The notes under the pieces are model-generated. The model had not been told where the DNA came from and made no database searches. It was given only the letters and a program-made list of their open reading frames with translations. The position numbers and the translations under genes are program-made. Shown piece by piece: positions 31,331 to 52,941 of a stretch of DNA of 64,000 nucleotides (its first letter is position 1; every line of letters starts with the position of its first letter). This DNA is from Candidatus Omnitrophota bacterium (lineage in GTDB: Bacteria; Omnitrophota; Gorgyraeia; Gygaellales; Profunditerraquicolaceae). The stretch spans positions 8,402 to 72,401 of the forward strand of contig JAQURC010000002.1 of assembly GCA_028715785.1 (NCBI GenBank), written 5' to 3'.

Positions 31331-31332
31331 AT

Positions 31333-31381
31333 ACCCCGCGTTTATAAGGTATTGCGCGGGTCTGCCCTTGCGGGCAAAGGA
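31333..31381 (+). repeat. gene-proximal two-hairpin+SD element (upstream of rplF; stem G-U variant, weak SD AAGGAAA)
   Basis: ACCCCGCGTTTATAAGGTATTGCGCGGGTCTGCCCTTGCGGGCAAAGGAAA. Confidence 0.7.
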
Positions 31382-31388
31382 AAAATAA

Positions 31389-36377: not shown

Positions 36378-36390
36378 AATTATTTTTTAA

Positions 36391-36440
36391 CACCCCGCGC
36401 TTAAAAGGAATCGCGCGGGTCTGCCCGCCTGGGCAAGGAG
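36391..36440 (+). repeat. gene-proximal two-hairpin+SD element (upstream of rpsM)
   Basis: CACCCCGCGCTTAAAAGGAATCGCGCGGGTCTGCCCGCCTGGGCAAGGAG. Confidence 0.75.
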
Positions 36441-36448
36441 CTTAAAAT

Positions 36449-36859: not shown

Positions 36860-36861
36860 TA

Positions 36862-36910
36862 CACCCCGCGCTAATTTGAATTGCGCGGGTGTGTGTTCGT
36901 ACACAAGGAG
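36862..36910 (+). repeat. gene-proximal two-hairpin+SD element (upstream of rpsK; hairpin 2 fully covaried TGTGT-TCGT-ACACA)
   Basis: CACCCCGCGCTAATTTGAATTGCGCGGGTGTGTGTTCGTACACAAGGAG. Confidence 0.75.
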
Positions 36911-36921
36911 ATAAAAATAAA

Positions 36922-37314: not shown

Positions 37315-37944
37315 ATGGGCCGTTATACTGGTGCAGTTTGCAGGTTATGTCGCAGGCAGGGGGAAAAACTGTTTTTAAAGGGGACCAGGTGTCAGACTGA
37401 AAAGTGTGCCGCCAGTAAAAGGGCGTATCCGCCCGGCCAGCACGGGCAAGGCAGAAGGCAGAAGCTTTCTAACTACGGAGTGCAGCTGAAAGAGAAACAG
37501 AAAGTTAAAAGGATTTACGGTGTTTTGGAAAGGCAGTTCCGTAAATATTTCAAGATCGCCTCAAAGACTAAAGGGGTCACCGGCAAGGTGCTTTTGCAAT
37601 TGTTAGAGCGCCGGCTGGATAATGTGGTTTTCCGCATGGGCCTGGGTATTTCCCGTTCACAGGCGCGCCAGATTGTCAGGCACAATTTAGTGGCGGTTAA
37701 TTCCCGCAGGGTCAATATTCCGTCATATTTAGTGGATAAAGATGATTTGGTTGAGATTAAAGCCAAGGATAAAGCTAAAATTAAGATCAAAGATAATCTG
37801 GAGCTTTCTAAAGACAGGACTGTTCCCGGTTGGCTTGAATTCAATGCGGCGGAGATGAAAGCCAAAGTTGCCAGGCTTCCTGAGAAAACCGATATTCAAC
37901 AGCCGATACAAGAGCAGTTGATCGTTGAGTTGTATTCTAAATAA
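37315..37944 (+). CDS. rpsD: 30S ribosomal protein S4 (zinc-finger form)
   Basis: MGRYTGAVCRLCRRQGEKLFLKGTRCQTEKC. Confidence 0.95.
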   Translation: MGRYTGAVCRLCRRQGEKLFLKGTRCQTEKCAASKRAYPPGQHGQGRRQKLSNYGVQLKEKQKVKRIYGVLERQFRKYFKIASKTKGVTGKVLLQLLERRLDNVVFRMGLGISRSQARQIVRHNLVAVNSRRVNIPSYLVDKDDLVEIKAKDKAKIKIKDNLELSKDRTVPGWLEFNAAEMKAKVARLPEKTDIQQPIQEQLIVELYSK

Positions 37945-37991
37945 AAATAGAATTAATCCGTAGTTTTATTAAATACAATTAGGGGGATAAA

Positions 37992-38984
37992 ATGGGGATA
38001 AAATGGAGAGATTTTCAGTTTCCTAAGAAACTTGATTGTGATGAGTCGACATATACCGATACATACGGAAAATTTCAGGCGGCGCCTTTTGAAAGAGGAT
38101 ATGGGGTAACCCTGGGTAACTCTTTAAGAAGGGTGCTGCTTTCATCCATCGAAGGCAGCGCGGTTACGGCAATTAAAATTGCCGGAGTCTCCCATGAATT
38201 TTCCACTATACCCGGCATACTTGAGGATGTGCCGGAGATCATCTTAAATATCAAAAGCCTGGTTTTAAATTCTCACTCCAAAATCCCCAAAACAATTTAT
38301 TTAAAAGCGGATAAAAAAGGGGAGGTTAAGGCCAAGGATATCCAGGCGGATGAGACAATCGAGATCATTAATCCTGAGCTGCATATCGCCACCCTTACTA
38401 AGGATACCAAACTTAATATCGAAATGGAGGTATCCCGCGGCAGAGGTTATGTTCCGGCCGAAGCGAATAAAAAAGAAGATAAAGTCGCCGGTTTCATCGC
38501 CGTGGATTCGATATTCACGCCGATTAAAAAGATCAACTATTACGTGGAAAATACCCGCGTAGGCCAGCGGACGGATTACGATAAGCTGATCCTTGAGATC
38601 TGGACCAATGGCAGCATTAATCCTAAGGATGCCCTGCTCTATGCTTCTAATATTTTACAAAGGCATTTGGATATTTTTGTAAGTTTTGGCCAGCTTCCTG
38701 AAGATGTCGCTGAAGAGGAGCCGGAGATGACCAAGGAGGACGCGGCTTTGTATGAAAAATTAAGGCTGCCGATTTCCGAGCTTGAGCTTTCAGTGAGAAG
38801 CTCCAACTGTTTAAGGGAAGCCGGAATTAAAACTATCGCTGATCTGGTTAAGAGGACTGAAGATGAGATGCTCAATTTTAAGAATTTCGGCAAGAAGTCT
38901 CTTACCGAAATTCAGGAGCTGCTTATGGGTATGGGGGTCAGTTTAGGGATGCAGGTTGATCCCAAGAAAATGAAGAAGGGATAA
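37992..38984 (+). CDS. rpoA: DNA-directed RNA polymerase subunit alpha
   Basis: 330 aa; NTD dimerisation and CTD motifs (SVRSSNCLREAGIKTIADLV). Confidence 0.93.
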   Translation: MGIKWRDFQFPKKLDCDESTYTDTYGKFQAAPFERGYGVTLGNSLRRVLLSSIEGSAVTAIKIAGVSHEFSTIPGILEDVPEIILNIKSLVLNSHSKIPKTIYLKADKKGEVKAKDIQADETIEIINPELHIATLTKDTKLNIEMEVSRGRGYVPAEANKKEDKVAGFIAVDSIFTPIKKINYYVENTRVGQRTDYDKLILEIWTNGSINPKDALLYASNILQRHLDIFVSFGQLPEDVAEEEPEMTKEDAALYEKLRLPISELELSVRSSNCLREAGIKTIADLVKRTEDEMLNFKNFGKKSLTEIQELLMGMGVSLGMQVDPKKMKKG

Positions 38985-38990
38985 GAGTAA

Positions 38991-39557
38991 ATGAGACACG
39001 CAAAGAAAAGACTGCAGCTTGGCCGTTTTACCAGTTGGCATGATGCGACAATAAAGAGCTTAGCCAAAAATATGATCATTTGCCAGAGCATTAAAACTAC
39101 TTTGACCAGGGCCAAAGCCAGCAAGCAGATGGTCGATAAACTTATAACCCTGGCTAAGAAAAACACGCTTTTTGCCCGCAGGCAGGCGCAGAAAGTGCTC
39201 GGTGAACATAAAATAGTCAATCTGCTTTTTAATGAAATCGGGCCGCGTTTTGCTAACCGCAGCAGCGGTTTTACCAGGATTATCAGCATCGGCAAACGCC
39301 GCGGCGATAACGCAGAGATGGTTATTTTTGAGCTTACGGAATTAAAGAAAAAAGAACCTAAAAAAACCAAATTAGCCAAAGAAGCCAGGCCGCAGGCGAC
39401 CCAGGCAGAAGAGGTTGTTGAAGAAAAAATTACGCAGGAACAGAAAAAGGAACCCAAGGCGGTAACTAAAGAAGCTCCGGTTGATCAGAAGAAGCCGCAG
39501 AAGAAATTTATGGGGGGCTTGCGGACCATATTTAGAAAGAAAAGTGATTCTTTGTAA
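38991..39557 (+). CDS. rplQ: 50S ribosomal protein L17 with Lys/Glu-rich C-terminal extension
   Basis: MRHAKKRLQLGRFTSWHDATIKSLAKN... L17 family. Confidence 0.93.
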   Translation: MRHAKKRLQLGRFTSWHDATIKSLAKNMIICQSIKTTLTRAKASKQMVDKLITLAKKNTLFARRQAQKVLGEHKIVNLLFNEIGPRFANRSSGFTRIISIGKRRGDNAEMVIFELTELKKKEPKKTKLAKEARPQATQAEEVVEEKITQEQKKEPKAVTKEAPVDQKKPQKKFMGGLRTIFRKKSDSL

Positions 39558-39574
39558 ACTGAAGAAAAACTTTT

Positions 39575-40750
39575 ATGAAGATAGATACTCGGCTTGCTGA
39601 GCGCCTAAAAAAAATCCATCCTTCCTCGACGCTGGCGATAACCTCTAAAGCTAAAAAGCTTAAAAGCGAAGGCAAGGATATCGTTAATTTTGCCGCCGGT
39701 GAGCCGGATTTCGATACGCCGGATTTTATAAAGGAGGCGGCAATTGCGGCAATTACTTCCGGATTCACCAAGTATACCCCCACCACAGGCACCCCCGAAC
39801 TAAAAAAACTCATTTGTCAGAAATTCAAAAAAGATAATTCATTAGAATATGCGCCGGATCAGATCATAGTTTCTAACGGGGCAAAGCACAGTATTTATAA
39901 CGCCCTGATGGTGCTTTTAAACCGCTCTGATGAAGCGCTTATCCCTTTGCCTTATTGGGTCAGTTATCCTGAAATGGCCGGCCTCTGCGAGGCAAGCGCC
40001 CGTTTCATAAAGACGACTGCCGCAAATAATTTTAAAATTTCCGCAAAAGACCTCCAGAAGCACATTACCACTAAAACCAAAGTACTTATTCTCAATAGCC
40101 CGTCAAACCCGGCCGGGTCGGTTTATAGCCGCCAGGAGCTTGAAGAGATAGCTAAAATCTGCGTGGATAAAAATATTTTTGTAATCAGCGATGAGATTTA
40201 CGAGAAGATTACTTTTGACGGCTTAAAGCATAATTCGATTGCCAGCTTCAATAAAGATATTTATAACCTCACCATTACGGTTAACGGCCTGTCTAAAAGC
40301 CATTCCATGACCGGCTGGCGTATCGGCTATCTGGGCGCGCCAAGCGATATTGCCAATGCCATTTCAAACCTGCAGGATCATTCAACCTCCAATCCTAATT
40401 CCATCGCCCAGAAAGCAGCGGTGGCTGCGTTAAGCGCGCCGGAGGATTTTACGCATGAATTGTGCCGGGAGTTTGCCAAAAGGAGGGATTACCTGGCCGC
40501 AAGGCTAAAGGGGATTAAGAATTTGAATTTTTCTCTGCCGCAGGGCGCGTTTTATATGTTTTGCGATATTTCTAAAACCGGCCTTGATTCATTGACTTTT
40601 TCCAGGCGTCTGCTTGAGGAAGAATATGTCAGCCTTATTCCCGGAATAAGTTTCGGCATGGATGACCATATAAGGATAAGTTTTGCCACAAGCGTCGAAG
40701 AACTGCAAAAAGGCATGGATAGGATAGAAAAGTGGATAACAAAACTATGA
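39575..40750 (+). CDS. class I pyridoxal-phosphate aminotransferase (aspartate aminotransferase-like)
   Basis: 391 aa; SNPSNPAGSVYS and GLSKSHSMTGWRIGY (Lys-PLP motif). Confidence 0.8.
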   Translation: MKIDTRLAERLKKIHPSSTLAITSKAKKLKSEGKDIVNFAAGEPDFDTPDFIKEAAIAAITSGFTKYTPTTGTPELKKLICQKFKKDNSLEYAPDQIIVSNGAKHSIYNALMVLLNRSDEALIPLPYWVSYPEMAGLCEASARFIKTTAANNFKISAKDLQKHITTKTKVLILNSPSNPAGSVYSRQELEEIAKICVDKNIFVISDEIYEKITFDGLKHNSIASFNKDIYNLTITVNGLSKSHSMTGWRIGYLGAPSDIANAISNLQDHSTSNPNSIAQKAAVAALSAPEDFTHELCREFAKRRDYLAARLKGIKNLNFSLPQGAFYMFCDISKTGLDSLTFSRRLLEEEYVSLIPGISFGMDDHIRISFATSVEELQKGMDRIEKWITKL

Positions 40751-42003
40751 GCCAAGCGACTATAGCCGAAAAAATATTAAGCAAGCATGCCGGTAAAACC
40801 TTGCGCGCAGGAGATTTTGCGGTCTGCAAAATTGATTTTGCTTTTGGCCAGGATGGAACCTCCTCGATAATTATCGACCGGATAAAAGAGCTGGGGGTAA
40901 AAAAAATAAAAACCAAGTTTTGCATGGTAATTGACCATAGCGCCCCCAGCCCCAGCGAAGGGGTTTCCCGGGTGCATAAGAAGATGCGCGATTTTTCGCA
41001 GGATTTTAATACGGAAATTTTCGATATCGGCTGCGGGGTTTGCCATCAGGTTATCCCTGAATCGGGAAATGTTTTACCCGGAGATTTAGTTTTAGGGGCA
41101 GATTCCCATACCTGTACCTATGGGGCACTGGGGGCATTCTCTACGGGTGTGGGTTCTACGGATCTGGCGATAGCTTTAGCTACGGGAAAGAATTGGTTTA
41201 AAGTCCCGGCAACCGTGAAAATTATCGTTACGGGAAAACTTCCCAAAGGGGTTTTTGCCAAGGATATAATTTTGCATATAATCGGTAAATTAAAAAGTGA
41301 CGGGGCTACCTATAAAGCAGTTGAATTCTACGGCCCGGCGATTAATAATATGGGTATGGACGGCCGGTTCACTGTTGCCAATATGCTGGTTGAGATGGGG
41401 GCAAAGACAGGCTTTCTGCCGGTTGATGATAAAACCGCTGCCTGGTTAAAATCCAGGGTTAGCGGCAGCCGGCGCATTGAACATATTACCGCAGACAAAG
41501 GGGCTCTTTATGAGAATGTTTATGAGTTTGATATTTCAAAACTTGAACCGGTGGTTTCTATGCCCCATAGCGTAGATAATACCGCGCAGGCATCGACTTT
41601 AAAAAAGGTAAAAATAAACGAAGCTTTTTTGGGCACCTGTACTAACGGCCGGATCGATGATTTGAAGGTTGCGGCAAAGATCTTGAATAAACGCAAGGTT
41701 TCTCCGCAAGTTAAATTAATTATTGCTCCGAGTTCCCGCAGCGTCTATCTGGAGGCTTTAAAACTCGGCCTGGTTGAGATATTTATCAAAGCCGGGGCAG
41801 TGATTGTGGCTCCGGGCTGCGGCCCTTGCGTGGGCACGCATAACGGTATTCCCAGCGACGCAGAAGTGGTGATCTCAACCGCAAATCGTAATTTTAAAGG
41901 CAGGATGGGAAATCCTTCGGCTTTTATTTATCTGGCTTCTCCGGCTACGGTGGCGGTTTCGGCGCTTAAAGGTTACATTAGTGATCCCAGGGATTATTTC
42001 TAA
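40732..42003 (+). CDS. leuC: aconitase-family hydro-lyase large subunit, small type (3-isopropylmalate / homoaconitate dehydratase LeuC-like)
   Basis: 423 aa; Fe-S ligand context GTCTNGR, CGPCVG; paired LeuD-like gene downstream. Confidence 0.75.
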   Translation: MDNKTMSQATIAEKILSKHAGKTLRAGDFAVCKIDFAFGQDGTSSIIIDRIKELGVKKIKTKFCMVIDHSAPSPSEGVSRVHKKMRDFSQDFNTEIFDIGCGVCHQVIPESGNVLPGDLVLGADSHTCTYGALGAFSTGVGSTDLAIALATGKNWFKVPATVKIIVTGKLPKGVFAKDIILHIIGKLKSDGATYKAVEFYGPAINNMGMDGRFTVANMLVEMGAKTGFLPVDDKTAAWLKSRVSGSRRIEHITADKGALYENVYEFDISKLEPVVSMPHSVDNTAQASTLKKVKINEAFLGTCTNGRIDDLKVAAKILNKRKVSPQVKLIIAPSSRSVYLEALKLGLVEIFIKAGAVIVAPGCGPCVGTHNGIPSDAEVVISTANRNFKGRMGNPSAFIYLASPATVAVSALKGYISDPRDYF

Positions 42004-42004
42004 C

Positions 42005-42053
42005 CACCCCGCGCTTATAAGGAATTGCGCGGGTGTGCCCGTGTGGGCAAGGA
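42005..42053 (+). repeat. gene-proximal two-hairpin+SD element (upstream of pilT)
   Basis: CACCCCGCGCTTATAAGGAATTGCGCGGGTGTGCCCGTGTGGGCAAGGAGG. Confidence 0.75.
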
Positions 42054-42060
42054 GGAATTG

Positions 42061-43107
42061 ATGGAAATTCGCGATTTACTTTTAATGTGTATCGAGAAGG
42101 ACGCTTCGGATCTGCATGTCACGGAAAATGAACCGCCGATCCTGCGCATTGACGGCAGGTTACTGCGCACAAACCTGGAGAAATTAGATAAGCCAAGTTT
42201 AAAAAAAATGATCCACAGCGTTCTTTCCAATTCCCAGAAAGAGGTTTTTGAGCGCGAATTGGAGCTTGATTTTTCGCTTGCCTTGCCGGATCTGGACCGT
42301 TTCCGCGTAAATGTCCATCTGCAGAAGGGCGCGGTGGAAGCGGCTTTTCGCCGTATCCCGATAGAGATACCGACTGTGGCAAAATTAGGCCTGCCTAAGA
42401 TTATAAGCGATTTAGCGCGCAAGCCCAACGGTTTAGTTTTGGTAACCGGGCCTACAGGTATGGGCAAGACCACTACTTTGGCGGCGATGATCGACCTTAT
42501 TAACAGCGAACGGGAATGTCTGATTACCTGCATCGAAGACCCGATCGAGTTTATCTATAACAATAAAAAGAGCATCGTTAAACAGCGCGAGGTTTATTCG
42601 GATACGCATTCTTTTGCCGAAGCCTTGCGTCATGCCCTGCGCCAGGATCCCAATGTTATCGTAGTCGGTGAAATGCGCGACTTAGAAACTATATCCACCG
42701 CTTTAACCGCGGCGGAAACCGGCCATCTTGTTTTAGCGACCTTGCATACGCCGGATGCCCCGCAAACTATCTCCAGGATCATCGATGTTTTCCCGCCGCA
42801 TCAGCAGACGCAGGTCAAATTGCAGCTTTCCGATTGTTTGCAGGGGGTAATTTCGCAGCTTCTGCTTCCGCACGCATCAGGCAAAGGAAGGGTGTTGGCT
42901 ACCGAGATCATGGTGGCAACCTCCAGTATCCGCAATCTTATCCGCGAGCAGCAGATAGAGCAGATCCCGACGATGATGCAGACCGGTTTGCAATACGGCA
43001 TGAATACTATGGACAGCTGCCTTAAAGATTTGACCCAAAAAGGCCTGATCACTTTGGATGTGGCTATGTCTAAAGTAAAGAATAGGGAAGAGTTTAAACA
43101 GCTATGA
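42061..43107 (+). CDS. pilT: type IV pilus retraction ATPase PilT-family
   Basis: 348 aa; Walker A GPTGMGKTTT, PilT family core; start corrected from 42025 (TTG within repeat). Confidence 0.85.
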   Translation: MEIRDLLLMCIEKDASDLHVTENEPPILRIDGRLLRTNLEKLDKPSLKKMIHSVLSNSQKEVFERELELDFSLALPDLDRFRVNVHLQKGAVEAAFRRIPIEIPTVAKLGLPKIISDLARKPNGLVLVTGPTGMGKTTTLAAMIDLINSERECLITCIEDPIEFIYNNKKSIVKQREVYSDTHSFAEALRHALRQDPNVIVVGEMRDLETISTALTAAETGHLVLATLHTPDAPQTISRIIDVFPPHQQTQVKLQLSDCLQGVISQLLLPHASGKGRVLATEIMVATSSIRNLIREQQIEQIPTMMQTGLQYGMNTMDSCLKDLTQKGLITLDVAMSKVKNREEFKQL

Positions 43108-43607
43108 GTATTGAAGGCAAAAGCGTAAAACTCGGGGATAATATAAATACGGATTTTATCATTTCCGGAAGGTATAAGTTTGCCATTACCGATATGAAGG
43201 AGCTGGCCAAACACATTATGGAGGATATCGACCCGAATTTTCCGCAGAAGATTGTTCCGGGAAAAACCATTATCGTCGCCGGCAATAACTTTGGCATGGG
43301 TTCAAGCCGCGAACAGGCCCCGTTGGTAATCAAAGAGGCCGGGGTTGTTGCGGTCCTATCCCCGCAATTTGCGCGCATATTTTTTCGCAATAGCTTTAAT
43401 ATCGGGCTGCCTTTGATTGAAACTGACACCAGTAAAATTGAGGAGGCAGACCGGCTCCAAATCGATTTAGATAAAGGTTTGGTAAAAAATCTCACCAAAG
43501 GCATTGATTTAGAGATTAAGCCTCTGCCTAAATTCATGCAGGACCTTTTAAGCGAAGGCGGCATAATTAATTATTACAAAAAACACGGAGAACTACCTGC
43601 GTTATAA
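43104..43607 (+). CDS. leuD: aconitase-family hydro-lyase small subunit (LeuD-like)
   Basis: 167 aa aconitase C-terminal swivel domain; 4-nt overlap with pilT. Confidence 0.75.
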   Translation: MSIEGKSVKLGDNINTDFIISGRYKFAITDMKELAKHIMEDIDPNFPQKIVPGKTIIVAGNNFGMGSSREQAPLVIKEAGVVAVLSPQFARIFFRNSFNIGLPLIETDTSKIEEADRLQIDLDKGLVKNLTKGIDLEIKPLPKFMQDLLSEGGIINYYKKHGELPAL

Positions 43608-43689
43608 AATTTGTGTAATTGAAAAAAAGAAAGCAATAAACCAGCGTTACACGTTACGCATTAAACGTTACACAAAATAATTATTTAAT

Positions 43690-44778
43690 ATGGTTCATAA
43701 AATAACTCTTATTCCCGGCGACGGTATCGGATATGAAGTTTCACTTGCGGCTAGGCGGTGCATCGAGGCCACGGGTGTTAATATCGAGTGGGAGAACGTG
43801 CTTGCCGGTTCCGATGCCCTGGATAAAACCGGGGAGCTCCTGCCGCAGAGCGCGCTGGATTCAATCAAGAAAAATAAGGTTGCCCTCAAAGGGCCGATCA
43901 CCACACCCATTGGAACCGGGTTTCGTTCGGTAAATGTGGCGATCAGGCAAGCGTTGGATCTTTACGCCTGCCTGCGTCCGGCTAAAAGTTATTTAGGGGT
44001 AAATAGCCGTTTTAAGGACATTGACTTGGTTATTGTCAGGGAAAACAGCGAAGACCTTTACGCCGGCATAGAATTTGAAGAGGGTAAGCCTGAAACTAAG
44101 AACCTGATCGCCCAGATTCAAAAGGACACCAAAAGGCTGATCCGCCGGGATTCCGGTATAAGCATCAAACCAATATCTAAATTCGCATCGGAGAGGATCG
44201 TAAAATTTGCCTTTGAGTATGCTTTAAAAAATAAACGTAAGAAAGTTACCTGCGTGCATAAGGCAAATATCATGAAATTTACCGACGGTTTATTTTTAAA
44301 AGTTGCCCGGGAGGTTGCCCAAAAGTATGCCGGAAAAATAATTTTTGAGGAAGCAATCGTGGATAATATGTGTATGCAGCTGGTGCAGAAGCCGCATAAT
44401 TATGATGTCTTGGTGCTGCCTAATCTTTACGGGGATATCATTTCTGACCTTTGCGCCGGGCTCATCGGCGGCCTGGGAATTGCACCCGGCGCCAATATCG
44501 GCGCGGAGCTGGCGGTTTTTGAAGCTGTGCATGGCTCTGCTCCGAAATATAAAGGGAAGAACAGAGTTAATCCCACGGCGATGATCTTGTCGGGGGCCTT
44601 GATGCTGCGTTATATTAATGAAGAAAAAGCTGCGGACAGCTTAGAAGAAGCGGTAAAGCAGGTGATTGCCGAAGGAAAATCCGTAACCTATGATTTAAAA
44701 GCCGATCCGCTTGACCCCGGCGCTGTTGGTACCGCGCAGATGGCTGATGCCATTATTGACAAGCTAAAAAGAATATAA
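43690..44778 (+). CDS. isocitrate/isopropylmalate dehydrogenase family protein (NAD-IDH-like)
   Basis: 362 aa; IPGDGIG, LDLYACLRP, NLYGDIISD motifs. Confidence 0.75.
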   Translation: MVHKITLIPGDGIGYEVSLAARRCIEATGVNIEWENVLAGSDALDKTGELLPQSALDSIKKNKVALKGPITTPIGTGFRSVNVAIRQALDLYACLRPAKSYLGVNSRFKDIDLVIVRENSEDLYAGIEFEEGKPETKNLIAQIQKDTKRLIRRDSGISIKPISKFASERIVKFAFEYALKNKRKKVTCVHKANIMKFTDGLFLKVAREVAQKYAGKIIFEEAIVDNMCMQLVQKPHNYDVLVLPNLYGDIISDLCAGLIGGLGIAPGANIGAELAVFEAVHGSAPKYKGKNRVNPTAMILSGALMLRYINEEKAADSLEEAVKQVIAEGKSVTYDLKADPLDPGAVGTAQMADAIIDKLKRI

Positions 44779-44782
44779 ACTT

Positions 44783-45703
44783 ATGAAGATTACCGTAATC
44801 GGCGCAGGAAACGTGGGGAGCCTGACTGCAATGCGCATCGCCCAGGATGGACTGGGCGATGTTTTGCTTATTGACATCGTCAAGGGGCTGGCGCATGGGA
44901 AGGCTTTGGATTTAGAGGATGCCCGGCCGCTCCTAAAACATAATTATAATATTCGAGGCAGTGATGATATCGCCCAGCTTAAGGATTCGGATATCGTGGT
45001 GGTTACCGCCGGCCTGGCGCGTAAACCCGGGATGAGCCGCGAAGAATTGCTGGCAAAGAATGCCCAGATTTTAAAAGGAGTGTGTTTGAATATAAAAGAG
45101 CTGGCCAGGAATGCGATTGTTATAATCGTCACCAATCCTTTGGATATTATGACTTTTTATGCCCTGAAAATTACCGGTTTTAAGCCCGGCAGACTTTTTG
45201 GCATGGGGATTAGTTTGGATACTGCCCGGTTTATCAATTTAATCGCCGGCGAATTAAATTTACCGGTTACGGATATTGAGGCATTAGTCATCGGCGCCCA
45301 CGGTGAAGGCATGCTTCCTTTGCCGGCTTTGGCTAAAGTTAAGGGTGTGGCGTTAGATGAATTTATCGGCGACGATAAGATTGGCGTATTAGTCAGCCGC
45401 ACGGTTGCCAGGGGCGCTGAAATCGTTGCCAACCTTGGAACAGGGAGCGCGTTTTTTGCCCCGTCAGCGGCAATCGCGGCAATAGTCAAAACAATAGTCA
45501 AGGATGAAAAACGCATTATTGGGTTGTGCAGTTATCTTAACGGAGAATACGGCATCAAGAATAGCTGTATAGGCGTTCCCTGCCGTTTAGGCAAAAACGG
45601 CATTGAACAGATTATTCAACTGGACCTTTCGCCGGAAGAGAAAAACAGGCTGACCAAATCCGCGCAGCTTGTAGCTGCTGCGGCAGCGCAATTATTGGCT
45701 TAA
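44783..45703 (+). CDS. mdh: malate dehydrogenase (LDH-like MDH)
   Basis: GAGNVG Rossmann motif; GLARKPGMSREEL with Arg specificity residue. Confidence 0.85.
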   Translation: MKITVIGAGNVGSLTAMRIAQDGLGDVLLIDIVKGLAHGKALDLEDARPLLKHNYNIRGSDDIAQLKDSDIVVVTAGLARKPGMSREELLAKNAQILKGVCLNIKELARNAIVIIVTNPLDIMTFYALKITGFKPGRLFGMGISLDTARFINLIAGELNLPVTDIEALVIGAHGEGMLPLPALAKVKGVALDEFIGDDKIGVLVSRTVARGAEIVANLGTGSAFFAPSAAIAAIVKTIVKDEKRIIGLCSYLNGEYGIKNSCIGVPCRLGKNGIEQIIQLDLSPEEKNRLTKSAQLVAAAAAQLLA

Positions 45704-45718
45704 AAACCAACCATACCT

Positions 45719-47002
45719 ATGTATGATCTGGCTGTTATTGGAGCAGGCTGGGCAGGTTTTAACGCTGCCCTAAAAGCAAAAGAGCTGGGCCTGAAGGTTT
45801 GCCTTATTGAATCCGGCCGGATCGGCGGAACCTGCCTTAATTTCGGATGTATTCCCACCAAAGCATTAATCGTTTGCGCGAAAATATTTCAGCTGGCTAA
45901 AAAAGCACCGGGTTTTGGGGTAGAGCTGGATAATCCGCGGTTTAATTTCACAAAAATCCAGGAAAGAAAAAATAAAATCGTCCGGGAGCTTGCCCAGGGG
46001 ATGCGCGGCAGGCTTGCCGGAATCGATCTTATCGAATCCGTTGCCCGGATCAGTTCTCCTAATGAAATAAAAGCCGATGGCCGCCTGATCAACAGTAAGT
46101 TTATACTTATTTCAACCGGCAGTCATTCGGTTCTATTGCCCGGGTTAAAGATTGATCAAGAAAAAATAATTTTAAGCGACCAAGCCCTGGCTTTATCGGA
46201 AATTCCCCAATCTTTATTAATTATCGGAGGAGGAGTAATTGGCTGTGAATTCGCCAGTCTTTTTTCTATTTTAGGCAGCAAGGTGGCCATTATTGAAAAG
46301 ATGCCGTTTCTTTTGCCGGGAGAAGACATGGATATAGCCAGAAAGATAGAAGTTATTTTTAAGAAAAAAGGAATCCAGGTAACTTGCGGCGCGGATATCG
46401 CTAATTTCAATTTGGAAGATTATTCCCGTATTTTAGTTTGCGTAGGCAGGACCGCCAATACCGCCGGTTTAGGTTTGGAAAACTTAGGCGTAGAATTGGC
46501 AAATAACAGGATAATCGTTGATGATTATCTTCAGAGCAGCGTTGCCGGTATATATGCGGCAGGAGATTGCGCCTCTAAGATAATGCTTGCTCATTATGCT
46601 GCTTATCAGGGGAGAGCGGCGGTTGAAAATATGGTTTCAAATAATAAGCATAAGGCGGATAATAAGATTGTGCCTGCCTGCATATTCACCGAGCCGCAGA
46701 TTGCCAGCGTCGGCTTAAATGAAGAGAACGCCCTGGCTGCCGGCTTATCGGTTAAAGTCCATAAATTTGATTTTCGCGCCAATGCCATGGCGCGCATTAT
46801 CGATGAGGCCGAAGGATTCATCAAGATTATTAGCAACCGGCAAACTCAGGAAGTGATCGGCGCCAGCATAATCGGTCCGCTTGCCAGCGAGTTAATCTCC
46901 ATTCTCTCTATGGCAATTTCAGCGCATTTGACTGTTGACCAGATTCGCGCGATGATATTGGCGCATCCCACTCTTTCTGAATCAATATATGAAGCTGTCT
47001 AA
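45719..47002 (+). CDS. lpd: dihydrolipoyl dehydrogenase
   Basis: 427 aa; GGTCLNFGCIPTK redox disulfide, FAD/NAD folds, C-terminal His-Pro-Thr-xSE. Confidence 0.85.
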   Translation: MYDLAVIGAGWAGFNAALKAKELGLKVCLIESGRIGGTCLNFGCIPTKALIVCAKIFQLAKKAPGFGVELDNPRFNFTKIQERKNKIVRELAQGMRGRLAGIDLIESVARISSPNEIKADGRLINSKFILISTGSHSVLLPGLKIDQEKIILSDQALALSEIPQSLLIIGGGVIGCEFASLFSILGSKVAIIEKMPFLLPGEDMDIARKIEVIFKKKGIQVTCGADIANFNLEDYSRILVCVGRTANTAGLGLENLGVELANNRIIVDDYLQSSVAGIYAAGDCASKIMLAHYAAYQGRAAVENMVSNNKHKADNKIVPACIFTEPQIASVGLNEENALAAGLSVKVHKFDFRANAMARIIDEAEGFIKIISNRQTQEVIGASIIGPLASELISILSMAISAHLTVDQIRAMILAHPTLSESIYEAV

Positions 47003-47007
47003 ACCAT

Positions 47008-47056
47008 CACCCCGCGCTTAGAGGAGTTGCGCGGGTGTGCCCTGGTGGGCAAGGAG
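47008..47056 (+). repeat. gene-proximal two-hairpin+SD element (upstream of lipoyl-domain gene)
   Basis: CACCCCGCGCTTAGAGGAGTTGCGCGGGTGTGCCCTGGTGGGCAAGGAGG. Confidence 0.75.
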
Positions 47057-47062
47057 GTTACC

Positions 47063-47299
47063 ATGATGAAAGTGGTGCTGCCGGAATTAGGGGAGGGTAT
47101 TACTAAGGCTACCGTGTCGTATTGGTTTTATAAGGACGGGGAAAAGGTAAACCGGAATGATGACCTGGTGGAATTGACTACCGATAAAACTACCTTTAAC
47201 CTGCCCAGCCCCTGCACAGGGGTAATTTCCGAAATAATGTATAGCGAAGGCGATAGCGTGGATGTGGGCCAGACATTGGCGGTAATTAACGAAGCCTGA
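47063..47299 (+). CDS. free-standing biotin/lipoyl attachment domain protein (78 aa)
   Basis: MMKVVLPELGEG...ELTTDKTTFNLPSPCTGVISEI (lipoyl-lysine context DKT); start corrected from 47027. Confidence 0.7.
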   Translation: MMKVVLPELGEGITKATVSYWFYKDGEKVNRNDDLVELTTDKTTFNLPSPCTGVISEIMYSEGDSVDVGQTLAVINEA

Positions 47300-47308
47300 C
47301 CATTCTTA

Positions 47309-47337
47309 TTGACATTATGCCGCTTCTTTAGTATACA
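47309..47337 (+). promoter_or_regulatory. candidate sigma70 promoter (TTGACA-17-TATACA) for the GAF/HD-GYP gene
   Basis: Hexamer match and spacing. Confidence 0.35.
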
Positions 47338-47373
47338 TGATTATGGTGGATAAACTAAGATTTAGACAGATAA

Positions 47374-48540
47374 ATGGCAATCGATTATAAAAAAGAATTA
47401 GAAAATACGGCCAGGAGCATGATCTTTGTGCATGATCCGGATTCCTTGATTAAATCAATCGTGCGCATGATCGTCAGTAAGGCTAAGATTACCCACGCCA
47501 GTTTCTTCTTGTATAGCCGGCAAAAACAGGGTTATCTGCTCACTGTTTCCAAGGGGTCGCTGGGCAAGAAGATTCCCTTGGATCTAATCTGTATCGATAA
47601 GGATGATGTGTTGGTCCGTTTTTTGAAGGAGCATAAGAGCGCCCCTATTTTTGGCAGAGAGGCCTTGGTTTACAGCCAGGCGGAAATTGCCTTAAAAAAT
47701 ACAAAATTAAAGCAGGACACCAAGAGCCAGCTGGCTCAGGTCCTTTATCAAATGGAGCTCTTGGATGCGGTTGTTTGCGTCCCGGGTTATTTCGGCAATG
47801 AGCTTCTGGGTTTTTTGTTATTGGGCAAGAAGGATTCAGGTAAGGATTTTATCGGCGAGGAATTAAATTTTTTTGCCGCCCTTAATTCTAATGTGGCAAT
47901 GGCTATTAAAAATGCCCAGCTTTTTAAGGAGCTGGAATATGAAGTAGAGCGCAAGCACCAGTTGTTTGTGCGTATCACCGTTGCATTTGCCGCGGCTATC
48001 GAGGCCAAGGATCATTATACCCGCAGCCATACCAGCCGGGTAACCAATATAAGCCTTGAGATTGCCCGCAGGATCGGACAAAAATCAAAAAGAAGCCTTG
48101 ATGGAAAATTTTTCGAGAATCTCCACATTGCCAGCCTCCTGCATGATATCGGCAAGATCGGCGTGCCGGAGTATATTTTAAACAAAAGAAGCGGGTTGAC
48201 TATCGGGGAGCGTAACCGCATCAAAGAGCACCCGATGATCGGGGTCGGTATTTTAAAACCGATTAAAGAACTGGAAGGGTCTTTGTTGGGGGTCAGGTAT
48301 CACCACGAGCGATTTGACGGCAAGGGGTATCCTGAAGGCTTAAAAGGAGACCAGATCCCCTTGGTTGCTTCGATAATCTCCGTAGCCGATTCTTTCGACG
48401 CCATGATTACTGACCGGCCCTATCGGACGGCTCTTAATAAGGCCGATGCGATTAATGAGATCAGGCATCTGGGCGGCCAGCAATTCTGTCCCCGCGTTAC
48501 CAATACTTTCCTGGAACTCTGCGAGGAAGGAAAAATCTAA
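47374..48540 (+). CDS. GAF-domain HD-GYP phosphodiesterase (c-di-GMP hydrolase family)
   Basis: HD motif HDIGKIGVP; HHERFDGKGYPEGL (GYP). Confidence 0.8.
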   Translation: MAIDYKKELENTARSMIFVHDPDSLIKSIVRMIVSKAKITHASFFLYSRQKQGYLLTVSKGSLGKKIPLDLICIDKDDVLVRFLKEHKSAPIFGREALVYSQAEIALKNTKLKQDTKSQLAQVLYQMELLDAVVCVPGYFGNELLGFLLLGKKDSGKDFIGEELNFFAALNSNVAMAIKNAQLFKELEYEVERKHQLFVRITVAFAAAIEAKDHYTRSHTSRVTNISLEIARRIGQKSKRSLDGKFFENLHIASLLHDIGKIGVPEYILNKRSGLTIGERNRIKEHPMIGVGILKPIKELEGSLLGVRYHHERFDGKGYPEGLKGDQIPLVASIISVADSFDAMITDRPYRTALNKADAINEIRHLGGQQFCPRVTNTFLELCEEGKI

Positions 48541-48547
48541 TTTTTCT

Positions 48548-49672
48548 ATGCGCCCTAAACGTATTATTTTGATGTATATTTCCGAAGTTTCCGGGCATCG
48601 CAGCGCCACCCTGGCCATTGAAAAGGCGGTCAAGGAATTACGTCCGGATACGGAGATCTTAAGCATCAATGCCTTTAATTACACTAATCCCATAACAGAA
48701 AAGGTGGTTAACCGGATCTATATGGAGGTAATTAAACGCACCCCCAAGCTTTGGGACTATCTTTATGATAATCCCAGCGTAGTTAAGGGGCTGGAAAATA
48801 TTAAACGGCGTATACATAAATCAAATTCGCCGAAACTTAAAAAACTTTTTGATCGTTTTAACCCCGATTTGGTGGTCTGCACCCAGGCATTCCCCTGCGG
48901 CATGGTTGCTGATTATAAAAAGGCTTATGGGTTAAATTTGCCGCTTGTGGCGGTGCTTACGGATTATATCCCGCATTCTTATTGGGTTTATGAGGAGGTG
49001 GATTACTATATAACCCCTTCGGAAGATGTCTCGGCGCGCTTAGAAAAAAAAGGAGTCGCTCCTTCAAAAATTAAGGCCTTGGGGATCCCCTTTGATCATA
49101 AGTTCAACCAAAAGTTGGATAAGGAAAGCGTCTTGCGTAAATTAAAATTAAACCCGCAGAAGCCGGTAATCTTAATTATGGGCGGCGGCCAGGGGCTGGG
49201 GCCGATTAAAACTATCGTTAAGTCATTGGAGAAAAGCGAAAATGATATCCAGGAATTGATTGTTGCCGGGATCAATAAAAAGTTATTGAATTCGCTAAAA
49301 CGAAAAATAAAGCATTATAAAAAAGACATCCATTTGTTTGGTTTTATACAAAATATCCATGAATTAATGCGTATCGCCGAGTTGATCATATCTAAACCGG
49401 GAGGGGTTACTACCGCCGAAGTCCTGAGTATGGGCCTGCCGATGATTATTGTCAAGCCTATCCCCGGCCAGGAGATCAATAATACCAATTTCTTGACGCA
49501 TAAGGGGGCGGCAATCAAGGTAGACAAGCCCGAAGAGGTCCATCGGGTTATCGATGATTTATTAAGGAACCGGACAAGATTAGAGCAGCTTAAGCTTGCT
49601 GCTTTAAGGATCGCCAAGCCCGGGGCAAGTATGGATATCGCCAAGCTTCTACTGAGTCTACAATCGTGCTAA
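48548..49672 (+). CDS. MGDG-synthase-like / GT28 diacylglycerol glycosyltransferase
   Basis: N-terminal MGDG_synth-like region (ILMYISEVSGHRSA), GT-B C-terminal; start corrected from 48446. Confidence 0.7.
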   Translation: MRPKRIILMYISEVSGHRSATLAIEKAVKELRPDTEILSINAFNYTNPITEKVVNRIYMEVIKRTPKLWDYLYDNPSVVKGLENIKRRIHKSNSPKLKKLFDRFNPDLVVCTQAFPCGMVADYKKAYGLNLPLVAVLTDYIPHSYWVYEEVDYYITPSEDVSARLEKKGVAPSKIKALGIPFDHKFNQKLDKESVLRKLKLNPQKPVILIMGGGQGLGPIKTIVKSLEKSENDIQELIVAGINKKLLNSLKRKIKHYKKDIHLFGFIQNIHELMRIAELIISKPGGVTTAEVLSMGLPMIIVKPIPGQEINNTNFLTHKGAAIKVDKPEEVHRVIDDLLRNRTRLEQLKLAALRIAKPGASMDIAKLLLSLQSC

Positions 49673-50523
49673 ATTATTATATTTATCGTTTTGGCCAATT
49701 TATCGCCCTAATCTTGCCAATCAAGATAGTTTATGCGATCGCGGTTTTTTTAGCCGACCTGCATTATTTTTTTGCTTTCCGCGACCGCCGGTTTGTAAAA
49801 GCCAACCTGCGGGTTATTTTTCCTGAAAGACCGGATAAAGAGCTGCGCAAAATAAGCAAACAGGTTTTTCGAAACTTCGCAAAATACCTGGTGGATTTTT
49901 TTCGTTTTGAAAAATTAAACCTTGGCTACATAGATAGAAACATAAAATTAGAAAATATGCATTATTTTGACCAGGCTCTAGCTAAGGGTAGAGGCGCGGT
50001 TGTCCTGACCGCCCACTTGGGCAATTGGGAGCTGGGAGGAGTGGTTATCGCGCTTTTAGGTTATCCCTTTTGGGTAGTGGCCCTGCCGCATAAAAACAAA
50101 AAAGTCGATATTTTCTTTAATACCCAGAGGAACAGGAAAGGAGTTAAGGTTGTGAGTATGGGCAAGGCTGTCCGAAGTTGTCTTTCCGAAATCAGGAATA
50201 ATCATATGGTCGCTTTGGTCGGTGACCGGGATTTTACCGAAAAAGGGATCACCATTGATTTTTTCGGTAAACCAACGCATTTTCCTGAAGGCCCGGCGGC
50301 TTTAAGCCTGATGACAGGGGCAAGTATTATTCCGGGTTTTATGCTTAGGAATCCGGATGATAGTTTTACATTAAGGATCGAAAAACCGGTGGAATTTTCT
50401 CCCACCGGGGATAAAACAAAAGATTTAGCCGGTTTGGTTGCGGTTTATAAAAATATTTTTGAGGATTATATCCGCCGGTATCCTGAACAGTGGTATGTTT
50501 TTCGCAGGTTTTGGGCTAAATAA
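49666..50523 (+). CDS. LpxL/HtrB-family lipid acyltransferase (lysophospholipid acyltransferase superfamily)
   Basis: HLGNWELGG motif; 285 aa. Confidence 0.7.
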   Translation: MLNYYIYRFGQFIALILPIKIVYAIAVFLADLHYFFAFRDRRFVKANLRVIFPERPDKELRKISKQVFRNFAKYLVDFFRFEKLNLGYIDRNIKLENMHYFDQALAKGRGAVVLTAHLGNWELGGVVIALLGYPFWVVALPHKNKKVDIFFNTQRNRKGVKVVSMGKAVRSCLSEIRNNHMVALVGDRDFTEKGITIDFFGKPTHFPEGPAALSLMTGASIIPGFMLRNPDDSFTLRIEKPVEFSPTGDKTKDLAGLVAVYKNIFEDYIRRYPEQWYVFRRFWAK

Positions 50524-51192: not shown

Positions 51193-51696
51193 ATGATCCA
51201 GGTTTACACGGGTAATGGCAAAGGTAAAACTACCGCGGCAATGGGGCTGGCTTTACGGGCTGCCGGAGCGGGTTTTAACGTTTATATCTGCCAGTTTGCC
51301 AAAGGGCATCTTTGCAGCGAGCATAAAGCGCTGAAAAAATTAAAGAATATAAAGGTCGAACAGTTTGGCAGGGATTGTTTTGTCAGGCGTAAGCCTGTGC
51401 AGGCTGATATCATATTAGCCCATCAGGGCCTGGAGAAGGCAAAAAAAATTATTGCTTGTAAAAAATATCGTTTAGTTATTCTGGATGAAATTAACATTGC
51501 TTTGAAGTTAAGGCTGGTATCCATTAAAGAGGTGCTGGATTTAATTAAGCATACACCGAAGAATATGGAATTAGTGCTTACTGGCCGGGATGCGCCCGCG
51601 CGGATTACTAAGGTTGCGGACCTAGTTAGCGATATAAAAGACCTTAAACATTATTATCTTAAAGGAATAAAAGCCCGCCGGGGAATTGAGCTCTGA
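51193..51696 (+). CDS. cobO: cob(I)yrinic acid a,c-diamide / corrinoid adenosyltransferase (CobA/CobO/BtuR family)
   Basis: MIQVYTGNGKGKTTAAMGLALRAAGAGF P-loop signature. Confidence 0.8.
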   Translation: MIQVYTGNGKGKTTAAMGLALRAAGAGFNVYICQFAKGHLCSEHKALKKLKNIKVEQFGRDCFVRRKPVQADIILAHQGLEKAKKIIACKKYRLVILDEINIALKLRLVSIKEVLDLIKHTPKNMELVLTGRDAPARITKVADLVSDIKDLKHYYLKGIKARRGIEL

Positions 51697-51826
51697 CACC
51701 TGAAACTGTTTCCAAGCTAATCGGGAAACAGGGTGTCCCTTTTGGGCGCGTCCCCATTATGAAGCATTATTATAAACGCGGGTTTAGGGCAAGAAAAGGC
51801 ATTGAATTATAATTTTAGGAAAATTA

Positions 51827-51854
51827 TTGACAAATTATTGTTGGGTGTTAAAGT
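51827..51854 (+). promoter_or_regulatory. candidate sigma70 promoter (TTGACA-16-TAAAGT) driving riboswitch 1
   Basis: Hexamer match upstream of riboswitch. Confidence 0.35.
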
Positions 51855-51867
51855 AATTAGACAATTT

Positions 51868-52100
51868 GGTAAACTTATAGGTTAAGGGAAATCCGTAAAT
51901 ACGGATGCGGTCCCGCCGCTGTAAGGGCAGACGAAAACTGCATAAGTCACTGTCTTTAGTGTTAAAGACGGGAAGACGCAGTAAGTAGGTTAGAAGCCCA
52001 AGCCAGAAGACCTGCCTATATAAAGAATGGTAATGCCTCGTGGAATGGGTTAAGAAATATTTGGGTGCAACCCGTCAGCAACTGTGGCGGGTTTTTTGTT
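51868..52100 (+). promoter_or_regulatory. cobalamin (B12) riboswitch with intrinsic-terminator expression platform
   Basis: AAGGGAA, CCCGCCGCTGTAAG, GTCACTG (B12 box), GGGAAG, GACCTGCC conserved blocks; terminator ACCCGTCA-GCAACTG-TGGCGGGT + TTTTTTGTTT at 52069-52100. Confidence 0.6.
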
Positions 52101-52110
52101 TAATATCTAT

Positions 52111-52941
52111 ATGAAAAAAATAATACTGATAAGTTTTTTTGTTTGCTGGCTGGCAAATACAGCCTTTGCCGCGCCCCGTTACATTTCTCTTGCGCCTTCA
52201 ACCACCGAGATCCTTTTTGCCCTGGGTTTAGACACGGAGATCGTAGGTGTAAGCACCTATTGTAATTATCCCGAGCAGGTAAAAAATAAAACCAAGGTTG
52301 GGGATTTCAGCAGCCCCAGCATCGAGAAAATAATTTCATTAAAGCCCGATTATATTTTTTGCACCGGGCTTGAGCAGGCTCCGGTTATCGCCCAGTTAAG
52401 AGGATTGGGTTTTAAAGTTTATGTGGCGGATCCGGCAAGTTTTGAAGAGCTATTTAAATCAATCAAGGAAATCGGAGAGATAACTAAAAAAACAGTTCAA
52501 GCTTCGGTCTTGATTGGAGAAATGCAAGCCCAGATCGCTGAGGTAACTTCCGCGGTAAAGCTTGTTCCCCGGGAAAAGAGAGTCAGGGTTTTTATTGAAA
52601 TCTGGCATGAGCCGTTGATGACTGCCGGAGGCGGCTCTTTTGTGGATGAATTGATTGCTTTAGCCGGCGGTATTAATATCGCCCACGATACGCTCAGGCC
52701 TTATTCTAATTATAGCGCGGAGAGAGTGGTTAGTTCTAATCCCCAGTGTATTATTATGGTTTATATGGACAAAGAGGCGCCGCTAAAGTTAATTGGACAG
52801 CGTTTTGGCTGGGATAAAATAGACGCGGTGAGAAACCAGCGCGTATTTAACGATATCAGCCCGGATATCTTGCTTCGGCCGGGGCCGCGATTAACTCTGG
52901 GTTTAAAGCAGCTTTACGGAAAACTATACTCTAAACAATGA
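52111..52941 (+). CDS. btuF: periplasmic cobalamin/siderophore-type substrate-binding protein (BtuF-like)
   Basis: Signal peptide MKKIILISFFVCWLANTAFA; class III binding-protein family; start corrected from 52084 (inside terminator). Confidence 0.75.
   Translation: MKKIILISFFVCWLANTAFAAPRYISLAPSTTEILFALGLDTEIVGVSTYCNYPEQVKNKTKVGDFSSPSIEKIISLKPDYIFCTGLEQAPVIAQLRGLGFKVYVADPASFEELFKSIKEIGEITKKTVQASVLIGEMQAQIAEVTSAVKLVPREKRVRVFIEIWHEPLMTAGGGSFVDELIALAGGINIAHDTLRPYSNYSAERVVSSNPQCIIMVYMDKEAPLKLIGQRFGWDKIDAVRNQRVFNDISPDILLRPGPRLTLGLKQLYGKLYSKQ

Follow-up and report, generated by a model that had tools for sequence, protein, structure and literature searches.

The Omnitrophota are known to carry a tricarboxylic acid (TCA) cycle of the horseshoe type, in which an oxidative branch leads from citrate synthase to 2-oxoglutarate and a second branch connects oxaloacetate and malate (Williams et al. 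2021, PMC8542988; Seymour et al. 2023, PMC10066038). Si- or Re-citrate synthase has been found in each metagenome-assembled genome (MAG) examined, and the aconitase AcnA in just 3 of 14; nine of the 11 AcnA-less MAGs carry two enzymes annotated as LeuCD, one of which may serve as aconitase according to a supplementary footnote (PMC8542988). Isocitrate dehydrogenase (IDH) is encoded in 165 and malate dehydrogenase (MDH) in 166 of 176 complete Omnitrophota genomes (2026 preprint). The MAG tables of the two published studies place the IDH and MDH genes next to each other, and Seymour et al. went no further than a count of Pfam aconitase domains; the two studies do not describe operon anatomy, a link to the alpha operon, a substrate loop or clade definition, or the pilT, dihydrolipoyl dehydrogenase (Lpd) and lipoyl-protein (Lip) genes. 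Here we describe a stretch of 64,000 nucleotides from a Candidatus Omnitrophota contig (JAQURC010000002.1, positions 8,402 to 72,401; hereafter the window, in whose own numbering all positions are given), in which eight co-directional genes on the + strand (39575-47299, both ends on gene boundaries) follow the alpha operon. These genes encode a split LeuC/LeuD-like hydro-lyase and an IDH among other proteins. The hydro-lyase is probably a heterodimeric aconitase, and the region, with its aspartate aminotransferase (AspAT) and MDH, is likely to form a biosynthetic C4/C5 node of the oxidative branch of the horseshoe cycle. The horseshoe pathway is known already for the phylum, and the aconitase idea has been published merely as a footnote; the comparative definition of a candidate clade of two-subunit aconitases, the joining of this clade to the alpha operon, the insertion of pilT and an orphan Lpd-(LipB)-Lip set go beyond the literature that we reached.

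The closest solved relatives of the hydro-lyase are the isopropylmalate/citramalate isomerase (IPMI; MJ0499/MJ1277; PDB codes 4KP1 and 3VBA) and the homoaconitase (HACN; MJ1003/MJ1271; 4KP2 and 2PKP) of Methanocaldococcus jannaschii, which have the same two-subunit architecture. The large subunit, LeuC', is a LeuC/HacA-type [4Fe-4S] protein of 418 aa, a length shared by its homologues (40747..42003; PF00330, 8e-103), with the same three cluster cysteines in GTCTNG and GCGPC, and the small subunit, LeuD', of 167 aa (43104..43607) is an Aconitase_C protein (PF00694, 1.5e-14) with the shared GSSRE motif in the form GSSREQAP. These domains and motifs place the pair in the two-subunit IPMI/HACN structural type. 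PDB matches of the large subunit reach 395 bits for MJ0499, 374 for MJ1003 and 137 for mitochondrial aconitase, and those of the small subunit 149 bits for M. jannaschii IPMI and 133 for HACN. Subfamily models alone pass for the pair (PRK00402, hacA_fam, IPMI_arch and LEUD_arch), with 556 bits for PRK00402 (cut-off 385), 545 for TIGR01343 hacA_fam (cut-off 386) and 179 for TIGR02087 (cut-off 109), and all equivalogs fail. Of the LeuC/LeuD equivalogs, the pair misses TIGR02083 (484 bits, cut-off 610.65), TIGR00170 (238, cut-off 560), TIGR02084 (178, cut-off 245.85) and TIGR00171 (53, cut-off 116), and of the HacA/HacB equivalogs NF040615 (454, cut-off 550), NF040625 (180, cut-off 230) and NF040604 (145, cut-off 230), so that the family placement called for by the initial annotation, made from the letters of the stretch, puts the pair in neither group. 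The aconitase equivalogs PRK07229 (348, cut-off 612), TIGR01340 (176, cut-off 825) and TIGR01341 (115, cut-off 945) are missed as well. Being composed of two subunits and not of a single polypeptide with domains 1-4, the pair lies outside the described AcnA, AcnB, mAcn and IRP subfamilies, and our proposal is confined to the pair working as an aconitase, not to membership in one of these subfamilies.

In the two-subunit IPMI/HACN type, a short loop in the smaller protein sets the substrate choice (PMC7308503). The loop reads ISGRYKFAITD in the window protein, ARYL-VYTK in MJ1277 (IPMI), GPYL-RTTD in MJ1271 (HACN) and GRYNLT-KD in PH1724. The window segment G-R-Y-K-F-A-I-T differs from YLVY of IPMI and YLRT of HACN in having a Lys and one extra residue, inserted relative to MJ1277, and it lacks the Arg of YLRT. 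The signature G(R/K)YKF.(I/T).D together with GSSREQAP is common to 70 of 70 small subunits from related loci. A survey of loop classes across 1.84 billion cluster representatives contains ARYLNTSD, YLRT-like, YLV-like and Y(F/A)HLRSN as other classes, and in a neighbour-joining (NJ) tree the small subunits of the locus cluster together, separately from the three solved proteins, with the ARYLNTSD class in separate groups. The Lys of the Y-K-F loop (Lys25) may conceivably stand in for Arg580 of aconitase or Arg26 of HacB at the distal carboxylate of the substrate; mapping of Lys25 onto Arg580 by sequence fails because the hidden Markov model matches to aconitases start at GSSRE.

All homologues of LeuC' with 80-94% identity come from Candidatus Omnitrophota MAGs and are annotated as 3-isopropylmalate dehydratase. 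A genome scan for LeuC' gave 80 loci with 85-53% identity (numbered from L001 onwards), onto which the window proteins were mapped. If the public annotation were right, the pair would be the isopropylmalate/citramalate isomerase (LeuCD) of plain branched-chain synthesis, perhaps bifunctional, with an IDH gene as its neighbour by chance. Such a reading would agree with the M. jannaschii IPMI subunits being the nearest solved structures and with 2 of the 11 AcnA-less MAGs apparently having a single LeuCD pair (PMC8542988), but it is unlikely in view of four other results. No leuA or leuB gene occurs in the 64-kb window or next to the orthologues in the 80 related loci, the LEU2 and leud equivalogs are not reached (484 against a cut-off of 611, and 178 against 246), the loop carries a Lys and is one residue longer where LeuD has the hydrophobic YLV or YLNT, and all dehydrogenase neighbours are of the IDH type. 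The suggestion of the initial annotation that the locus is an oxaloacetate/2-oxoacid module rather than a leucine operon thus gains support from the absent leuA and leuB, for which it had asked, from the IDH-type neighbour and from the missed equivalogs.

The IDH gene (43690..44778; 362 aa; PF00180, 2e-106) lies 3' of the small-subunit gene. Its product contains the substrate motif GPITTPIGTGFRSVNVAIRQ (FRSVNVAIRQ; R-S-x-N), the Ser113-x-Asn115...Arg119 isocitrate signature in E. coli numbering. The cofactor motif HGSAPKYKG (K-Y) is of the NADP type and not the D-I of the NAD type; it corresponds to the Lys344/Tyr345 NADP signature in E. coli numbering. Both motifs align with the A. fulgidus NADP-IDH 2IV0. 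Among PDB matches, IDHs come first (368-250 bits), ahead of homoisocitrate dehydrogenase (HICDH; 242) and 3-isopropylmalate dehydrogenase (at most 223), and the NCBIfam IDH equivalogs are missed (PRK08997 404, cut-off 510; TIGR00183 368, cut-off 567). Since the equivalog cut-offs are missed while the ranking favours IDH over the other two, the protein is predicted to be a divergent 362-aa IDH subtype that uses NADP. The "NAD-IDH" of the initial annotation therefore probably names the wrong cofactor, although 6LKY, the nearest solved IDH relative, is labelled NAD-dependent. The placement of the dehydrogenase, another check proposed there, comes out on the IDH side, and the caution that the specificity of the LeuCD/IDH pair cannot be read from sequence does not hold for the IDH, whose substrate is largely readable from its motifs. 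The IDH motif is present in 54 of 54 Iso_dh genes adjoining the LeuCD clade.

Another reading of the locus is 2-oxoacid elongation, in which homoaconitase and homoisocitrate dehydrogenase would lead to 2-oxoadipate for aminoadipate lysine synthesis or a cofactor. The 545 bits of hacA_fam, HacB2_Meth as the top match of the small subunit (180 bits) and the passing of the nifV homocitrate synthase model by a neighbour in a sister clade fit this route. It is nevertheless very unlikely, since the HacA and HacB equivalogs are missed (454, cut-off 550; 180, cut-off 230), the arginine of YLRT is absent from the loop, the dehydrogenase combines the Ser/Asn motif for isocitrate with better scores for IDH than for HICDH, and the corresponding neighbour in S. 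wolfei is an NADP-IDH equivalog. Of the two activities considered in the initial annotation, isomerisation of citrate is hence favoured and that of homocitrate disfavoured.

A sister clade of LeuCD-like pairs is found in Syntrophomonas, Desulfotomaculum/Peptococcaceae, Desulfovirgula, Dictyoglomota and one Actinomycetota MAG. In 20 non-Omnitrophota loci, a homologue of the NifV-like synthase of L049 is encoded directly 5' of LeuC', and 18 of these 20 upstream synthases are 65-100% identical to the L049 protein. The six sister-clade synthases that were scanned score 495-539 bits with TIGR02660 (cut-off 463). An IDH gene follows the pair on its 3' side in many of these loci; that of S. wolfei reaches 765 bits with PRK07006 NADP-IDH (cut-off 490). 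Because Re-citrate synthases are homologues of NifV and LeuA, a relationship that also speaks against 2-oxoacid elongation, the trio reads as a candidate Re-citrate synthase, an aconitase and an IDH. The neighbours are IDH and, in the sister clade, also a NifV-like synthase, not LeuA/LeuB or AksA/AksF.

The route from Re-citrate synthase through aconitase and IDH to glutamate in strict anaerobes (Clostridium kluyveri, Dehalococcoides, Syntrophus; cited in PMC8542988) is likewise an oxidative half-cycle for biosynthesis only. Its three genes are adjacent in the sister clade (Syntrophomonas, Peptococcaceae, Dictyoglomota), whereas in the Omnitrophota cluster the synthase lies outside, AspAT and MDH lie inside, and the candidate aconitase is a split enzyme of the IPMI/HACN type. 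The aconitases generally discussed for the anaerobe route are single-chain enzymes. A literature search returned nothing on heterodimeric, two-subunit or mini-aconitase, and nothing relevant on an aconitase-type or isopropylmalate isomerase gene clustered with (Re-)citrate synthase and IDH.

Genomic context is the strongest argument for an aconitase: we infer activity on citrate and cis-aconitate only from the conserved IDH and NifV-like neighbours and from the lack of AcnA in the majority of Omnitrophota MAGs. Several observations weigh against this assignment. Both subunits are nearest by sequence to M. jannaschii IPMI, with HACN second, and the NifV-like neighbour of the sister clade scores as a homocitrate synthase. 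No citrate synthase gene is present in the window or in the Omnitrophota loci, and the Si-type enzyme was detected in just 21 of the 176 complete genomes (2026 preprint). A survey of the aconitase superfamily gives the two-subunit architecture for HACN, IPMI and AcnX-II alone (PMC8184944). In addition, co-transcription of the cluster with the alpha operon is deduced from gene spacing alone.

In the proposed pathway, citrate would be supplied by a Si- or Re-citrate synthase encoded elsewhere, the heterodimeric [4Fe-4S] aconitase (40747-42003 plus 43104-43607) would convert citrate into isocitrate, and the IDH would convert isocitrate into 2-oxoglutarate with the formation of NADPH. The class Ib AspAT would exchange amino groups between the glutamate/2-oxoglutarate and aspartate/oxaloacetate couples, the NAD-dependent MDH would interconvert oxaloacetate and malate, and the net flux would probably run in the oxidative direction. 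The product of the AspAT gene (39575..40750) is a class I/II aminotransferase (PF00155, 2e-79, 267 bits); its top NCBIfam model is asp_aminotase_Arch with 447 bits, below the cut-off of 550, and all equivalogs are missed. PDB matches are AspAT 1J32 (378 bits), the AspAT/prephenate aminotransferases 5WMH and 6F77 (about 345) and Thermus AspAT (293). With AspATs as its closest relatives, the protein is predicted to be a class Ib enzyme that equilibrates aspartate plus 2-oxoglutarate with oxaloacetate plus glutamate, and it may also act on prephenate. The MDH (44783..45703; 306 aa) is LDH-like and NAD-dependent, passing PRK06223 (370 bits, cut-off 283) and falling just short of TIGR01763 (335 against 352). 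As the initial annotation had stated, it carries the Arg of MDH specificity at the position of LDH Gln102, within GLARKPGMSR.

The same enzymes could also work with the reverse net flux, either carboxylating 2-oxoglutarate reductively to isocitrate and citrate or using imported citrate. Aconitase and NADP-IDH are reversible, the scarcity of Si-type citrate synthase noted above would be in keeping with such a direction, and many Omnitrophota are predicted to be host-dependent (PMC10066038). It is improbable, because every MAG examined was found to have a Si- or Re-citrate synthase (PMC8542988) and because the AspAT of the operon suits the supply of 2-oxoglutarate and glutamate.

In the majority of the Omnitrophota MAGs examined, and perhaps in several anaerobic Firmicutes and Dictyoglomota too, IDH and citrate synthase are present but no aconitase can be recognised, and the LeuCD-like clade defined by the G(R/K)YKF loop and the IDH neighbour is a specific and widespread candidate for the missing enzyme. 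If the aconitase assignment is true, a two-subunit aconitase would join the recognised subfamilies, thousands of annotations as "3-isopropylmalate dehydratase" would have to be corrected, and the leucine and glutamate auxotrophies deduced for supposedly host-dependent nanobacteria would change.

The cluster follows rplQ (38991..39557, + strand), the final gene of the alpha operon, which encodes an L17 protein of 188 aa (PF01196 in the L001 orthologue). Bacterial L17 is typically about 120-130 aa long; the C-terminal tail of the window protein is long and rich in Lys, Glu and Gln, and the orthologues of relatives have 185-195 aa. The AspAT gene starts 17 nt past the rplQ stop, with no hairpin or terminator-like site in the gap, and the ATG of the large-subunit gene overlaps the AspAT stop (ATGA). 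Gaps between the genes range from -4 to +82 nt, and intergenic terminators are absent. A promoter and terminator scan of 37900-49800 gave counts near the shuffled expectation and no intergenic terminator, and is informative solely for the lack of a stop after rplQ. A promoter-like site, TTGACA-17-TATACA, lies 3' of the lipoyl-protein gene and before an HD-GYP gene. Because of the short gaps, the missing terminators and this site, the transcription unit plausibly runs from the alpha operon to 47299. The largest gap is an AT-rich spacer of 82 nt (43608..43689) with three CGTTAC(A/G)C repeats. It is absent from the closest relative, L001, where the IDH gene starts right after the small-subunit stop, and it could serve as an operator or internal promoter specific to this lineage. 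The attachment to the alpha operon suggests that the supply of glutamate and aspartate, the main amino-group carriers, is tied to the expression of the translation apparatus. The seven genes listed in the initial annotation are all present with strong family matches and exact coordinates; the list was incomplete in that a PilT ATPase gene (42061-43107), which parts LeuC' from LeuD', had been overlooked.

Gene order is conserved far beyond this contig. In L001 and L002 it is identical, from the ribosomal genes through rpoA-rplQ and the eight genes to those for HD-GYP, an MGDG-synthase-like transferase and an LpxL-like protein. The order rpoA-rplQ-AspAT-LeuC'-[PilT]-LeuD'-IDH-MDH is kept in about 55 Omnitrophota loci, mostly followed by Lpd and Lip; two complete genomes, V. 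archaeovorus LiM (L029) and CP070837.1 (L039), are among them. The block AspAT-LeuC'-LeuD'-IDH-MDH is unbroken down to 55% LeuC' identity, and the gene content 3' of MDH differs between lineages. In one Omnitrophota subgroup (L045, L047, L052 and L071), AspAT-LeuC'-LeuD' is followed by Lip, with no IDH, MDH or Lpd at the locus, and LipB precedes Lip in L045, L047 and L071; therefore, the hydro-lyase and the lipoyl protein stay linked without the dehydrogenases. Base composition (GC and skew) is uniform over the window. This uniformity and the phylum-wide synteny indicate that the locus is an ancestral, vertically inherited extension of the alpha operon in Omnitrophota; the same two results rule out an acquired island, so the label "island" in the initial annotation does not apply in the sense of acquired DNA. 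Full synteny at 62-85% identity is also found on contigs deposited as Planctomycetales/Planctomycetia, Patescibacteria or Deltaproteobacteria (L004, L007, L011, L012, L023, L025, L028, L033 and others), and these taxon labels are probably binning or naming errors.

Conserved order might also be no more than a frozen arrangement behind the alpha operon, with functionally unrelated genes, including pilT, lpd and lip. The chemically unrelated pilT within the cluster and the lineage-variable content 3' of MDH are what such an arrangement would produce, yet it is most improbable that no module exists at all: the five metabolic genes stay together over the identity range given above, LeuC'-LeuD'-IDH is found again, with other surroundings, outside the phylum, and the four chemistries share substrates.

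The pilT gene (42061..43107) encodes a protein of 348 aa that reaches 462 bits with TIGR01420 (cut-off 319). Walker A (GPTGMGKT), Walker B (VVGEMRD), the His box and SIRNLIRE are present, and PDB matches are PilT structures with 343-386 bits (386 for Geobacter PilT) and PilU with 240. By its sequence, the gene encodes a canonical type IVa pilus retraction ATPase. It matches Geobacter PilT (5ZFQ/6OJX), P. aeruginosa PilT (3JVV) and Aquifex PilT (2EWV) over the full length, with all ATPase motifs and an AIRNLIRE-like motif, and differs from these known genes by its position between the genes for two subunits of a metabolic enzyme, with translational coupling to the second, whose start overlaps the pilT stop by 4 nt. 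Of the loci that keep both subunit genes, 29 have pilT between them; they are spread over several deep branches of the LeuC' NJ tree (within the span L001-L039 and at L059, L077 and L078), and pilT is missing from a nested group of 18 Omnitrophota loci. The pilT stop and the small-subunit start overlap as ATGA in 16 of the 29 pilT-bearing loci, and the large-subunit stop and the small-subunit start overlap in the same manner in 9 of the 18 loci without pilT. The presence of pilT in deep branches, its absence from one nested group and the sameness of the coupling fit a single old insertion precisely at the junction and later loss; repeated gain of pilT is the alternative. Most likely, pilT took over the 4-nt translational coupling and rides on a strongly expressed operon without a chemical link to it. 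More PilT-like genes occur near the operon, one with an N-terminal PilZ domain after Lip in L016 (17058-18452) and one before AspAT in each of L051 and L060.

Small free lipoyl proteins outside the classical complexes have been described in two settings. In sHdr sulfur oxidation, LbpA is encoded beside dedicated lipoate ligases (Cao et al. 2018, PMC6067878), and in Pelobacter a LarG-Lpd disulfide carrier has been proposed, with the free lipoyl protein beside Lpd (PMC3543383). In the window, the Lpd gene (45719..47002; 427 aa; TIGR01350 436.9 bits, cut-off 408.8) encodes an E3 protein with the GGTCLNFGC disulfide and the HPTLSE dyad, and all 29 of its 29 best PDB matches are E3. The last gene of the cluster (47063..47299) encodes a free-standing E2-type lipoyl domain protein of 78 aa (PF00364, 1.5e-19), which has its lipoyl-lysine in TTDKT and aligns to E2p lipoyl domains; orthologues of 76-90 aa are present in 30 loci. 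LbpA and LarG are GcvH-like carriers, in contrast to this E2-type protein. The attachment enzyme in the window's relatives is the octanoyltransferase LipB, unlike the lipoate ligases of LbpA, and no Hdr-like or Act genes are nearby. In 20 relatives a gene for LipB separates Lpd from Lip or adjoins Lip even at loci that lack Lpd, IDH and MDH (for example L029 16358-17032, L016 16188-16859 and L047 11871-12575); the identity of LipB is given by PF21948 and, for three scanned proteins, by 142-155 bits with TIGR00214 (cut-off 84). Neither the window nor its closest relatives, L001-L009, have a LipB gene between Lpd and Lip. Because LipB adjoins Lip in 20 relatives, the 78-aa protein is predicted to be a real lipoyl acceptor.

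Neither an E1 nor a catalytic E2 is encoded in the window or in the flanks of the 80 loci, so a 2-oxoacid dehydrogenase complex is not found there, and OGDH E1/E2 is reported to be absent from 176 of 176 complete Omnitrophota genomes (2026 preprint). The locus shows no link of Lpd and the lipoyl protein with a 2-oxoacid dehydrogenase. These two proteins would form an NAD-linked lipoyl redox pair, and there is a tentative possibility that Lpd-(LipB)-Lip is a self-contained NAD(H)-linked lipoyl-disulfide carrier, independent of the 2-oxoacid dehydrogenase and glycine-cleavage complexes. Such a carrier could feed a thiol peroxidase or reductase, or balance reducing equivalents beside IDH and MDH; if it exists, it would be a role of lipoate new for an E2-type lipoyl domain. 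An apparent Lpd-lipoyl fusion in L025 and L028, considered as a Rosetta-stone link, was rejected, as the extra N-terminal residues are an artefact of open reading frame calling and contain no lipoyl domain. Together with the pilT insertion, the orphan Lpd-LipB-Lip trio is a well-defined puzzle for research on Omnitrophota.

A sequence of 55 nt, caCCCCGCGCTTATAAGGAATTGCGCGGGTGTGCCCnnnnGGGCAAGGAG, is common to the leaders of pilT and lip and can form two hairpins followed by a Shine-Dalgarno sequence. One copy lies directly 5' of pilT (42003..42057, 82.5 bits) and another directly 5' of the lipoyl-protein gene (47006..47059, 71.4 bits). With a covariance model, the window yields ten full-length copies plus a partial one, each on the + strand; besides the two just named, copies are located at 1958-2008, 12203-12296, 23145-23199, 27760-27814, 30878-30932, 31330-31384, 36389-36443 and 36860-36913. 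Nine copies end 1-9 nt 5' of a start codon, namely those of rplL, tuf, rpsC, rpsH, rplF, rpsM, rpsK, pilT and lip. Among relatives, copies are weaker and occur in the closest ones only. The repeat has no Rfam match, and covariation gives no support for the hairpins because the copies are too similar. It may be an intercistronic stabiliser or processing site that carries a ribosome-binding site, or a small mobile repeat. As a speculation, it might explain the read-mapping anomalies (hypervariable regions) in ribosomal operons of Omnitrophota (2026 preprint).

Two other parts of the window deserve mention. A cobalamin riboswitch (51862-52033, 88 bits) lies 5' of genes for a BtuF/FecCD/ABC transporter, and the region 51193-57638 contains cobO, a CobC-like phosphatase gene, cobU, cobT and cobS, followed by a TonB-dependent receptor gene, and so constitutes a cobalamin salvage and remodelling cluster. 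At 4612-6507, an Mfd-like protein of 631 aa is encoded that comprises UvrB_inter, TRCF RID, DEAD and Helicase_C domains; its length is about half that usual for Mfd, which suggests a compact transcription-repair coupling factor.

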